Shown one piece after another: positions 53,287 through 55,499 of a stretch of DNA of 64,000 bases. The notes under the pieces are model-generated. The model had not been told where the DNA came from. It ran no database searches and saw only the letters and a program-made list of their open reading frames with translations. The position numbers were made by a program, and so were the translations under genes. Position 1 is the stretch's first letter, and each line of letters starts with the position of its first letter. The stretch lies in sequence record PQ741806.1. The stretch is one strand, 5' to 3'. The DNA is from Pseudomonas phage Pa_AttikonH10.

Positions 53287-53618
53287 TATATCAGTTTTTA
53301 CAATGGACCACCAACGGAGCCTGGCCCGAGCCTAGCGTCATCTACAAAGCTTAACCTCCGCTCTTCTTTGTAGCATACCGGCACTAGTCTCATTTACCAT
53401 CCATTGTAGTTTTTGATCACACGTTACCTTTTGAGTAACTCCTTTCGGTTAAGTGATCTATCATCCTCGTGTAGTGATAGGTCGACCTAGACTAAGTCCA
53501 CTAGTCGATTACTTCACGGAACCTACTCCTAACCGTTATCACCGAAGTGAACCAGGGTCGCAGTATTAGAATCGGGATGTTACTTATTTAACATCCCTAT
53601 CTACCGAGGTATTTCCTA

Positions 53619-55499
53619 TTAGTACCAGGTACCCGGTGCATTATAGGAAGGAGCGCCGTAAGTTTGACCCATGCTGCCAGCCATGCCAACTTGTGCACTA
53701 CCAGAAACAGCCATGTTACCCATACCGGTGTAACCAGCGAAGCGCTGTTGACCGAAGTTGGTAATTAGGTTTTCCATGGTTACAGTTACACCAGCTGCTG
53801 CTGCTGCGGCATCCATTGCGGTGATGAATTTCGGGTTAAAGGTTAGACGACGAGCACGACCAGTATAGGTAACGTTACCTAGGTACATCTTGTCGAAGCC
53901 TTTACTGTTATTCATACGACGCACAATGTGGTCATTACCTACTTGAGTAGCATACCAGGTCTTCCACTCTTGATCGTTACCTTCAGACATGTTCATGGCA
54001 CCTAGAACGTCAAGATCACGACGGTCACTTAGTTCGCCATGCTCATCAGTGTAGTGACCGAGGTCTACTTCATGATGGTTGTCAAAGATGATCGGACCAG
54101 CTTCAGCTAGGTTATAGAACTGACGGAAATCAGTGCCATATAGGTTAGTTAGAGCTTGGAAGATCAGGCTAACTGCACGAGCTTGGTTTACGCCACCAGC
54201 TGCATCTAGGACTACTTGCTCAAGAGCAGAGTTGTCACCCATCGGATCGATATCGATCTGGAATGCAGGGTTCTGGTTAACCATCTTGTTCATTAGCATT
54301 ACGAAGTTGCTGTCGTCTGCCATGAATGCTTCGGTGCGAGTTTCAATCGCTTTACCTAGCTCTGAGTAATAACCAAGTGCACCAATATCACGCATCTTGC
54401 TGGTAGCGATCTTCGGCATTAGGGTACGAGCCCATGCCTGGGATGCAGTTGCACGATACGCATTACCAAGTGCGAACAGCCACATTTCTAGAGTCCATGC
54501 TTGGATCCAGGAAGCCTTACGAACGTCAGTGATAACGATGTAAGGAGTGAACTGCGGAGGTAGAACTGCACCAGGTAGAGTTACGCCGAACATACCTTGT
54601 TGCTGGCCAGTGGTCGGAGTCCAATGTAGGTCTACGAATAGACTAACTTGGTTTAGCTGGCTATCGGTATCATAGAACTCGTTCTCAGGTACGTTGGTTT
54701 TCTTACCACGGCTAGTGGAGATAACCAGGTCAGAACGAATCGGATTACCGCAGCTATCTTTAACCGGAATACCATTGTAGTCTAGGTTGCAGGTAAGCTG
54801 TTCGTTTTCTGCTTTGATGTGGGTCGCAATAGAGAACGGAGTCTCATTGTTACGACGTGCGATAGCATCTTCACAGATATTAACAGATTCAACTAGTAGG
54901 TTCTTAACAGCTAGTTCATCTTTGAAGTCGAAGTCAGCATACACTGCACGGGGACCGGCAGATAGTACTTCTAGACCAGGGATGTTGTAACGGTTCCGTA
55001 GGAATTCGCCGATCTTGCTCCAGTATTGAGCAGTGAATACATCACGCGGTAGTACCTTCTCTTCAATGATGTCATCAGTTAGACCATTGTTGATCTTGTG
55101 GGTACGGGGACGGATGCGAGTACCAGGTAGGTTATCGAGTACTAGAGTACGAACGAATGCCTTCATGGAACCATTGATATCTTTAGCTAGTTTAACAATT
55201 AGTAGACCAGCCATACCAACTTGTTGCGCATCGCGATCGAAACGATGGATATCGAAATCATCAGGTAGGTCCTGATGGCGGATTGCTTCTTCTTTTACTT
55301 TAGTGAATACTTGTAGGGCATCTGCTGAACGAGCATCAGAACCATCTAGCCGCCCAGAGCGACGCATTAGATGGTTAATGCCAGTAGTTGACCCAGGTGC
55401 GCCAGCAGGACGTTGAGCTTGACGCTGTGCAGTGGGTTGCGGAGCCGGAGTGGTAGCTTGAGTTTGAACGGTGCCGATTTCGTTTTCGTTAACAGCCAT
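53619..55499 (-). CDS. Putative phage-nucleus shell protein (chimallin, ChmA-like), 626 aa. Major capsid protein is a less likely alternative.
   Basis: Size about 630 aa; disordered Pro/Gln/Ala-rich N-terminal 45 aa and Gly/Met/Ala-rich C-terminal tail. Codon usage markedly more GC3-rich than neighbours, suggesting high expression. Own early-promoter-like motif. Lies immediately upstream of the beta-prime N-terminal gene, mirroring the phiKZ gp54-gp55 arrangement as recalled. Confidence 0.55.

Follow-up and report, generated by a model that had tools for sequence, protein, structure and literature searches.

The window analyzed is a 64,000-nucleotide stretch of Pseudomonas phage Pa_AttikonH10 (sequence record PQ741806.1), a phiKZ-like Pseudomonas aeruginosa jumbo phage, with positions 52000..56300 being 100% identical to phage Bobae and 53230..53640 showing 99.8% identity to phiKZ. 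The features of the locus all lie on the minus strand and are given below in the direction of transcription, with the evidence for each assignment in brackets.

55564..55613, minus strand: early promoter of chmA, phiKZ P028 (match to the listed 50 bp upstream of phiKZ P028)
53619..55499, minus strand: chmA (phiKZ gp54), nuclear-shell protein chimallin, 626 aa (Pfam, PHROG and PDB homology)
53259..53618, minus strand: whole chmA 3'UTR or intercistronic RNA, three domains plus terminator (conservation, fold, covariation, TTS)
53466..53608, minus strand: domain 1, a multi-branch fold (covariance model R2, covariation)
53415..53458, minus strand: domain 2, a small three-way junction (part of covariance model R1, covariation)
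53301..53406, minus strand: domain 3, closed by a long-range helix (covariance model R1, covariation)
53250..53292, minus strand: intrinsic terminator of chmA, phiKZ T025, leaky (hairpin plus U-run, published 3' end)
52085..53224, minus strand: non-virion RNA polymerase β' N-terminal gene (phiKZ gp55), first exon (PHROG 2987)

The open reading frame at 53619..55499 starts with ATG and encodes 626 amino acids, as an earlier note made from the sequence alone had it, and the proposal in that note of a chimallin is borne out over the full length of the protein. Residues 1-626 align with positions 1-627 of the Pfam profile PF25677 at 1117.2 bits (cut-off 27), PHROG 4795 'nuclear shell protein' is matched at 5.8e-229, and sequence comparison with solved chimallin/PhuN structures returns 8fne (phiPA3 PhuN) at 4.6e-164, 7sqq and 8igg at 2.3e-135 and the Goslar-type 7sqt at 1.4e-17. 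It is not a capsid protein, the competing identity named in the earlier note. The protein has the same sequence (100% identity) as ChmA from phages Bobae, Churi, T2P and U5 and is 99-100% identical to phiKZ gp54. Judged by its sequence it is phiKZ gp54 itself, ChmA, a protein already well known, and it does not differ from chimallin in family, neighbors or solved-structure homology; assembly of the shell in infected cells rests on the published phiKZ gp54 work (PMC12571901).

The codon usage of chmA is strongly selected, which is marked but expected for the most abundant early protein. The G/C bias at third codon positions that the earlier note described is present, with a GC3 of 0.42 being the highest among the 44 open reading frames of at least 150 aa in the window (mean 0.253, S.D. 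0.047). The preferred codons are TTC (92%), AAC (76%), ATC (70%), CGT (78%) and CTA (78%), and the codons TTA, TTG, CCA, ACA, AGA, AGG, CGA, GGA and ATA are absent. The next gene (52085..53224) matches an RNA polymerase β/β' PHROG, placing chmA directly upstream of the β' N-terminal gene as had been claimed. This gene order is found in the phiKZ-like phages, PA1C, phiPA3, phiHQ, Psa21, Noxifer and RVTF4, and a small open reading frame lies between the two genes in 201phi2-1, Phabio and Viktualia. The assignment of the window gp55 sequence as an exon reflects an uninterrupted homologue in PA1C and two group I introns just downstream in the window.

The chmA promoter region is near-identical to the 50 bp listed upstream of phiKZ P028, with one extra A in an A-run. 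It contains the TATATTAC motif at about 55578..55571 and directs a transcription start at about 55564, a coordinate carried over from the phiKZ alignment match. P028 (TSS 45583) is typed as an 'early promoter' in the supplement of bioRxiv 10.1101/2023.10.13.562163, and in these phiKZ data no TSS lies between P028 and P029 (49168). A sigma-70-type scan of 53100..55700 returned fewer promoter-like matches than shuffled controls, with none inside the element on the chmA strand. At the other end of the transcription unit the terminator is formed by an extended hairpin (53292..53260) with a UUCG loop, followed by UCC and then U7 at 53256..53250, and the strong terminator hairpin reported in the earlier note at 53286..53267 (GCGGCUCC-UUCG-GGGGCCGC) is the core of this longer structure. 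A simple terminator scan missed the T025 hairpin because 3 nt separate the stem and the U-run. The terminator helix (helix 17) is 100% paired in every cell of 9 sequences, and the terminator is ~80-98% conserved in phiPA3, 201phi2-1, Viktualia, Psa21, RVTF4 and Phabio, whereas the rest of the UTR is not.

The published phiKZ ONT-cappable-seq table types TTS T025 as 'intrinsic' and places it at phiKZ 47888 (window ~53259), and the read-through units TU041 and TU046 run past T025 to T028. Co-transcription of chmA and PHIKZ055 has also been reported (PMC12571901). The gp55 Shine-Dalgarno sequence AGGAG is located at 53235..53231. On the published phiKZ data gp55 is without its own promoter, and only transcripts that read through the terminator extend into it; the element is the tail of every chmA mRNA and the intercistronic segment of the read-through transcripts.

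The element begins 10 nt past the chmA stop codon and ends ahead of the gp55 start codon. The stop codon and the GC-rich hairpin are separated by 332 nt, in agreement with the gap of about 330 non-coding nucleotides noted earlier, and the region is relatively GC-rich, also as noted, with a GC content of 0.45-0.46 compared with 0.26-0.37 in neighboring sequence. The minimum free energy of the element is -123.7 kcal/mol (z = -4.1), and none of 100 shuffled sequences folds as well. Domain 1 is closed by the helix CCUCG/CGAGG (53608-53605 with 53469-53466) and contains three hairpins, including the GGGAUGUU/AACAUCCC stem and a cUUCGg-capped hairpin. The earlier note had identified this stem, with 8 nt between its strands, correctly but with coordinates off by one, the actual position being 53597..53574. 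Covariance model R2 for domain 1 scores 181.8 bits in the window, 169.9 in PA1C and 45.1 in phiPA3, where one hairpin carries a 157-nt insertion, and a 57-nt core of the domain is almost invariant across genera.

Domain 2 is composed of GAUCAC...GUGAUC around a CC-GAAA-GG hairpin and a GUUAC/GUAAC hairpin. Its closing helix covaries in phiPA3 (G-C to A-U and U-A to C-G) and its inner hairpin covaries in HPP-Temi (A-U to G-C). The Phabio chmA 3'UTR gives a weak, position-consistent match to domain 2 (15 bits, E about 0.01-0.09), and this domain is the most widely conserved module of the element. Domain 3 is closed by the long-range helix CAAUGGAU/GUCCAUUG, which encloses a short hairpin and a long bent hairpin that includes the CUACAAAG/CUUUGUAG stem, its strands 16 nt apart, at 53373..53342 exactly as previously placed. 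Covariance model R1 scores 179.9 bits in the window and 63.3 in phiPA3. The element also has unpaired stretches that are conserved, UCACUACA among them, and a GAAA loop that is likewise conserved. The 360 nt following chmA are a conserved RNA of three independently closed domains ending in the chmA terminator and not a spacer.

The RNA structure is maintained by compensatory change. Double changes that preserve pairing occur at 17 of the 106 predicted pairs of the element, whereas shuffles give 5.9 ± 1.7 and slid controls 1-4. For domain 1 the count is 8 of 47 (3.6 ± 1.0 in shuffles) and for domains 2 and 3 together 13 of 50 (2.6 ± 1.4); none of 500 shuffles reaches any of the three counts, and slid controls give 0-4. 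These counts draw on approximately four independent lineages, and the sequences used in the test are also those from which the structure was derived. The rate of difference between phiKZ and PA1C is 19.7% in unpaired columns and 9.9% in paired ones, with 14 of 15 altered pairs staying paired. In the phiKZ-proper lineage nine substitutions fall within 53392..53329 (63 nt), several of them compensatory, and pairing is largely preserved. The structured RNA sits on the chmA sense strand, as many consensus pairs are majority G-U on that strand and the consensus folds at -104 kcal/mol in the sense orientation compared with -63.5 kcal/mol in the antisense. The earlier note had offered a structured 3'UTR, a small RNA or a degraded element for this region, and had proposed looking for conservation of RNA structure in related phages. 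That comparison gives compensatory pair changes above shuffles, and the first suggestion is supported by the covariation, by the published 3' end at the terminator and by the lack of an internal start site; a degraded element is not supported, the compensatory changes maintaining the structure.

The element is more similar between genera than the essential genes on either side of it. Nucleotide identity between Phikzvirus and Pawinskivirus (phiKZ and PA1C) is 83% for the element compared with 55% for chmA and 63% for the β' gene, and over ~50 kb of phiKZ/PA1C synteny no other stretch of comparable length exceeds 77%. Within Phikzvirus the order is reversed, with 94-96% identity in the element and 99-100% in the flanks (13-20 substitutions in the 360 nt of the element compared with 1-6 in 617 nt of flanks), and part of the between-genus identity may come from recent transfer and not from constraint. 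The element is fixed in all 53 near-full-length records, single-copy, and always located downstream of the chmA stop codon and upstream of the ancestral terminator; when the window and every retrieved locus (50 kb of PA1C among them) were searched with the covariance models, no extra copy turned up. The family rests on ~60 GenBank phage records. ChmA-based and pattern-based scans of IMG/VR for relatives returned phiPA3 alone, a metagenome pattern scan gave five chance matches, one of them a bacterial ribosome-binding site, and pattern scans of GTDB genomes gave no match.

The distribution of the RNA does not follow that of its neighbors. The flanking proteins pair PA1C with phiPA3 (65% and 85%), whereas the RNA pairs phiKZ with PA1C (85%). 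In phiHQ both ChmA and β' are 100% identical to PA1C, yet domain 1 is exactly replaced by an unrelated structured module. Psa21 carries a second unrelated structured module at the same site, which is absent from its close relative RVTF4 and the core of which recurs in Ralstonia phage RP13. The locus is variable between two conserved core genes, with other genera carrying different RNAs or small open reading frames. The domains appear to be exchangeable cassettes, probably moved by recombination at this site when P. aeruginosa jumbo phages co-infect a cell. The same chmA-terminator-β' layout exists without the element in Noxifer, where the spacer is 84 nt, and in RVTF4, where it is 102 nt, and the element is therefore an add-on that the basic circuit does not require.

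Comparison of the element with Rfam 15 (4227 models) gives only three chance-level matches on the opposite strand (E 5-8), and the phiPA3, phiHQ, Psa21 and 201phi2-1 loci give no match at E<=1. No group I intron (RF00028) or group II match is found at E<=10 in 52800..56000, whereas the same library detects three genuine group I introns in other parts of the window, with scores of 79-89 bits, and ARAGORN reports 0 tRNA/tmRNA genes in 52000..56500; the earlier statement that the 3' region lacks group I and tRNA signals thus holds. A group I intron is further rejected as there is no interrupted frame to restore and relatives without the element have intact flanking genes. No similarity of the element to CRISPR repeats or antitoxin RNAs was found, and it pairs with the 5'UTR of chmA and with the ribosome-binding site of gp55 no better than with shuffled targets. 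No description of this chmA 3'UTR RNA was found in the literature searched.

The most likely reading, with a probability of about 0.5, is that the RNA is a cis-acting mRNA stability or read-through element of the early chmA operon. Anchored on the terminator hairpin, the compact fold would protect the chmA mRNA, a very abundant message, against processing or 3'-to-5' decay. It may also set the share of transcripts that stop at the terminator and the share that pass it, and this division would in turn determine how much shell protein is made relative to the polymerase subunit. Such an effect could be mediated by the phage polymerase as it transcribes or by a protein bound to the RNA. A broader proposal, tentative and clearly less probable, is that the chmA 3'UTR serves as a dedicated docking site at which large structured RNA cassettes, each with a specific partner, can be exchanged. 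The RNA might act on the phage's own multisubunit polymerase and license read-through into the polymerase genes, or it might bind a host or phage factor that localizes or protects the shell-protein message, and co-infecting jumbo phages would trade the cassettes under diversifying selection.

Comparably unlikely is a role as the precursor of a stable trans-acting ncRNA that is cut from the chmA 3'UTR and binds a host or phage partner (protein, ribosome or RNA). The region shares the terminator of the mRNA and has no TSS of its own, which is the standard layout of 3'UTR-derived sRNAs. The self-contained domain folds with their conserved unpaired stretches and GAAA loop fit such a product, and the near-invariant 57-nt core of domain 1 is as expected of a partner-binding surface. 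UTR-derived ncRNAs are made elsewhere in phiKZ (PMC8545117, PMC10914365). However, three phiKZ transcriptome studies, in which processed species without a TSS were not systematically searched, list no RNA species here, complementarity to the tested local targets is lacking, and ~330 nt is far above the typical size of a base-pairing sRNA.

Less likely again is a selfish or relic mobile RNA cassette, such as an intron-like element that is degenerate and ORF-less, lodged in a permissive spot after the stop codon and persisting without benefit to the phage. The conflict between the similarity pattern of the element and that of the flanking genes, the exact domain swap in phiHQ and the Psa21 module with its RP13 counterpart all suggest mobility, and two group I introns lie at most 1.5 kb downstream, with an HNH endonuclease there in some strains. 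However, an intron-derived origin is at odds with the absence of any group I or II match in a scan that readily scores the neighboring introns, and with the three nested domains, for which no P3/P7-type crossing is predicted. The single copy at a constant site, fixed in every near-full-length record, also argues against a selfish cassette, as does the maintenance of structure by compensatory change over substantial divergence, unlike a decaying relic.

An RNA decoy or counter-defense element engaging a host factor, with within-genus change and swapping reflecting an arms race, is improbable. The excess of substitutions over the flanks within Phikzvirus, the mostly pairing-preserving burst of the phiKZ-proper lineage, the position of the locus as a variable hotspot between two conserved core genes and the status of the transcript as the earliest and most abundant phage RNA are consistent with this role. 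The case is purely circumstantial, however; neither CRISPR repeats nor antitoxin RNAs nor any Rfam family was found to resemble the element, and recombination could equally explain the hypervariability. It is highly improbable that the region is a neutral spacer, a DNA-level signal or an unannotated gene for a small protein, since the 31-38-aa open reading frames placed here by some annotators show no conservation of position or of frame (one start codon is limited to the phiKZ-proper lineage), the indels are of 1-2 nt, conservation exceeds that of the flanking essential genes, and the compensatory changes and G-U asymmetry indicate a sense-strand RNA.

As a candidate cis-acting element of the chmA operon, the RNA can be compared with several known systems. 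The phiKZ ncRNAs 3'UTR_PHIKZ298 and 5'UTR_p40 (Gerovac 2021, Putzeys 2024) come from the same phage, are conserved among relatives and are likewise structured, bounded by a stop codon and an intrinsic terminator and without their own promoter. They are ~100-200 nt with two stem-loops, whereas the chmA element is ~330 nt with three multi-helix domains, precedes a promoter-less essential gene and was not reported in those studies. The HK022 put RNA and EAR, which act in cis to modify the polymerase during transcription, are also structured nascent RNAs just upstream of a terminator that has to be partly read through for expression of the genes beyond it; the resemblance is positional only, as there is no sequence or structure match, the chmA element is much larger and the polymerases are the phage's own multisubunit enzymes. 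Like GOLLD and ROOL, the element is a phage-borne, multi-domain RNA of several hundred nucleotides without an assigned function, but it has no Rfam match, is smaller, is embedded in an mRNA and is restricted to Pseudomonas chimalliviruses. The ORF-less group I introns of phiKZ-like phages, two of which adjoin the locus, are similar in size, GC content and mobility between phages, whereas the chmA element fails the Rfam model, lies after a stop codon and has a nested-domain topology.

The phage nucleus has ChmA as its founding component, and no gene of the family has been studied more; the RNA carried on the chmA message is apparently unannotated and undiscussed. Engineering directed at chmA, antisense strategies and 3'-end reporter fusions would disturb the element. 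The swapping of cassettes is a rare, clean case of structured RNA modules being exchanged horizontally between phage genera. The element is also an easily deletable target for the study of post-transcriptional control in nucleus-forming phages, and its location, after the most abundant early gene and ahead of a second-polymerase subunit gene that lacks a promoter, is one that would allow control of the transition from early to middle and late transcription.

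Over 52000..56300 the window and Pseudomonas phage Bobae are 100% identical, and the non-coding part between chmA and gp55 is 99.8% identical to phiKZ and matched by 56 P. aeruginosa jumbo-phage records; this near-identity identifies the window as a phiKZ-type genome read on the minus strand. Across its whole length the 626-amino acid ORF, taken for chimallin in the earlier note, fits the Pfam chimallin family (1117 bits); it also matches the PHROG "nuclear shell protein" and solved chimallin/PhuN chains (4.6e-164 and 2.3e-135), and shares 100% identity with ChmA of Bobae, Churi, T2P and U5. 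The chimallin assignment is correct and already known. Its placement directly upstream of the β' N-terminal gene also holds, with the chmA-gp55 order kept in all ten phages examined.

Features of the chmA-gp55 region (window positions)
53619..55499 (-), chmA ORF, 626 aa
53608..53466 (-), domain 1 of the element
53458..53415 (-), domain 2
53406..53301 (-), domain 3
53292..53260 (-), terminator hairpin
53256..53250 (-), U-tract
52085..53224 (-), gp55, β' N-terminal part of the non-virion RNA polymerase, next gene after chmA

The G/C richness noted at third codon positions is confirmed, with a GC3 of 0.42 that none of the 44 window ORFs of at least 150 amino acids exceeds (mean 0.253, S.D. 0.047). 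The codon table of chmA is sharply narrowed compared with 32 other window ORFs, with TTC at 92% (40% in the others), AAC at 76% (27%), ATC at 70% (29%), CGT at 78% (42%) and CTA at 78% of leucine (30%), and TTA, TTG, CCA, ACA, AGA, AGG, CGA, GGA and ATA entirely absent; this resembles the usual signature of translational selection on a very abundant protein. CTA is rare in the GC-rich host. A tRNA-Leu is encoded by phiKZ, but phage tRNAs reportedly need the later polymerase (PMC12571901), which leaves the CTA preference of chmA unexplained.

Both stems named in the earlier note and the terminator hairpin are found in the window. In the ONT-cappable-seq tables of phiKZ, a different isolate from this one (bioRxiv 10.1101/2023.10.13.562163 supplement), the transcript 3' end T025 is typed "intrinsic" and lies at 47888, equivalent to window ~53259 at the foot of the hairpin; four starts (P025-P028) lie upstream of chmA, none falls inside the 3' region and the next is at 49168. 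Read-through units extend to phiKZ 52650 and include PHIKZ055 (gp55), and an independent study describes co-transcription of chmA and PHIKZ055 (PMC12571901). The mapped ends, starts, read-through units and co-transcription define the stretch as the chmA 3'UTR and spacer before gp55, and gp55, a polymerase gene, depends on read-through of the terminator. A second, non-intrinsic 3' end in the same tables, T024 (phiKZ 45844, window ~55303), lies ~200 nt into the chmA coding region, yields short units of 261-907 nt from all four chmA promoters and could mark a point where processing or pausing occurs.

Between phiKZ and the Pawinskivirus group (PA1C and relatives) 48% of ChmA residues are identical. 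Global nucleotide alignment of phiKZ with PA1C gives 55% for chmA, 63% for gp55 and 83% for the 394-nt intergenic region, the step falling exactly at the chmA stop codon and the terminator end. Over ~50 kb of synteny with PA1C coding matches are 64-70% identical, and besides the element only one 57-nt stretch exceeds 77%; it lies at a gene boundary (39070..39125, 87.7%) and may be a shared terminator.

On the sense strand the element forms a folded RNA, with a folding energy of -123.7 kcal/mol (z = -4.1, single sequence). The consensus fold has 106 pairs in 17 helices, with numbers 4-6 and 13 the least certain, and G-U predominates in thirteen pairs. Conservation of RNA structure in related phages is borne out by changes on both sides of 17/106 pairs among nine sequences from three clades, few of them independent lineages and the same ones from which the consensus was built; shuffles give 5.9±1.7 and reach 17 in 0/500, and partners slid by 1-3 columns give only 1-4. 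The long-range closing helices compensate, U-A to C-G in domain 1 and A-U to G-C in domain 3. After covariance-model realignment, 8/47 pairs are doubly changed in domain 1 (shuffles 3.6±1.0) and 13/50 in domains 2-3 (2.6±1.4). Between phiKZ and PA1C 19.7% of unpaired columns differ compared with 9.9% of paired, and 14/15 altered pairs stay paired in both. The chmA strand has a consensus energy of -104 kcal/mol, the opposite strand one of -63.5. With T025 at the hairpin and no inner start, the covarying fold supports the structured 3' UTR first suggested for this region.

The absence of a group I core and tRNA, also claimed from the sequence, is upheld: the element matches no Rfam family even at E≤10, and a tRNA/tmRNA search of the region is empty. 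No small ORF keeps its position or frame; the 31-amino acid ORF annotated in Bobae has its ATG only in the phiKZ-proper lineage. Nothing in Rfam 15 matches the element, and it is unmentioned in the phiKZ dRNA-seq, Grad-seq, ONT-cappable-seq and antisense-screen papers and the 201phi2-1 transcriptome paper, and further literature searches gave no description of it; it is treated as a structured-RNA family that is new but of a general type already familiar. In other parts of the window the same Rfam library detects three group I introns, with scores of 79-89 bits.

Group I introns (window positions)
51836..52085 (-), in the β' gene, 88.9 bits
51250..51570 (-), in the β' gene, 79 bits
37109..37337 (-), between ORFs 36131..37033 and 37356..38555, 84.2 bits

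The two β' introns sit just downstream of the 379-amino acid gp55 ORF, and the PA1C homologue is a single uninterrupted 476-amino acid ORF whose 3' part aligns to 51674..51787 and 50972..51181, so that gp55 in the window seems to be the first of three exons. Churi and vB_PA32_GUMS carry an HNH endonuclease ORF (889 bp extra) at the intron site that is absent from this isolate. Long-read sequencing of phiKZ, as published, showed no splicing. The ORFs around the third intron presumably correspond to gp71/73, the split polymerase gene of phiKZ.

The element is transcribed with chmA, has a conserved fold and ends in a leaky terminator, and gp55 lacks a promoter. The preferred reading, with a probability of about 0.5, is that it acts in cis, where it would stabilise the chmA message and/or tune termination relative to read-through, and so balance the shell protein against the polymerase subunit. 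Caution is needed because relatives live without the element and no switch-like alternative pairing of it was found. A processed RNA acting in trans, which would be cut from the chmA 3'UTR, is unlikely.

The full element is present in every phiKZ-like and Pawinskivirus record. The phiPA3 version is diverged and has one hairpin enlarged by a 157-nt insertion (scores of 45 and 63 bits against the two covariance models, whose E-values are rough), and Phabio has a correctly placed but weak domain-2-like match (15 bits). Only the terminator is common to 201phi2-1, Viktualia, Psa21 and RVTF4, and Noxifer matches no part, terminator included; the chmA-gp55 spacer is 84 nt in Noxifer and 102 nt in RVTF4. 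By the flanking proteins, PA1C groups with phiPA3 (ChmA 65%, β' 85%) and phiKZ falls outside (48%, 66%), whereas the element RNA groups phiKZ with PA1C (85%), a conflict read as probable transfer between these lineages, which share a host. Such mobility would suit a selfish cassette, a doubtful reading of an element that is single-copy. Among Phikzvirus isolates, divergence peaks locally in the element (94-96% identity compared with 99-100% in 617 nt of flanks), and 53392..53329 inside domain 3 holds nine substitutions specific to the phiKZ-proper lineage, most of which preserve pairing. A decoy under arms-race selection could diverge in this way and is rather improbable. A trivial cause (neutral spacer, small ORF or DNA-level signal) is scarcely credible for a fold with such compensatory changes. 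The phiKZ-proper burst also creates the AUG of the spurious Bobae ORF.

In phiHQ, whose ChmA and β' are 100% and domains 2-3 98.7% identical to PA1C, domain 1 is swapped, with junctions just past the stop codon and at the first base of domain 2, for an unrelated ~305-nt module that also folds strongly (z = -5.5 for the whole UTR). The Psa21 chmA 3'UTR is 73% identical to this module, which is absent from RVTF4, a close relative of Psa21. This structured "type B" module (phiHQ locus L005 2694..3002; Psa21 locus L007 3756..4060) has no Rfam match. A copy of its ~100-nt core (…UAAAGGUCUGACG…UGACCUGCCAAAGUC…AAAACUUACGGUGAUGUAA…) that carries compensatory changes is also found in RP13, an unrelated Ralstonia phage, where it lies beside and upstream of the tRNA-Leu gene (L025 about 2440..2590), and type B may represent a phage RNA family of wider occurrence. 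Long chmA 3'UTRs predicted to fold are also present in Phabio (L009 3753..4036), 201phi2-1 (L008 3759..3965) and Viktualia (L012 3762..4000); Phabio and 201phi2-1 have in common a covarying GGGAUC-GAAA-GGUCCC hairpin directly after the chmA stop codon, and in Phabio and Viktualia small ORFs follow or precede the conserved terminator. The chmA 3'UTR locus is a general hotspot among Pseudomonas chimalliviruses.
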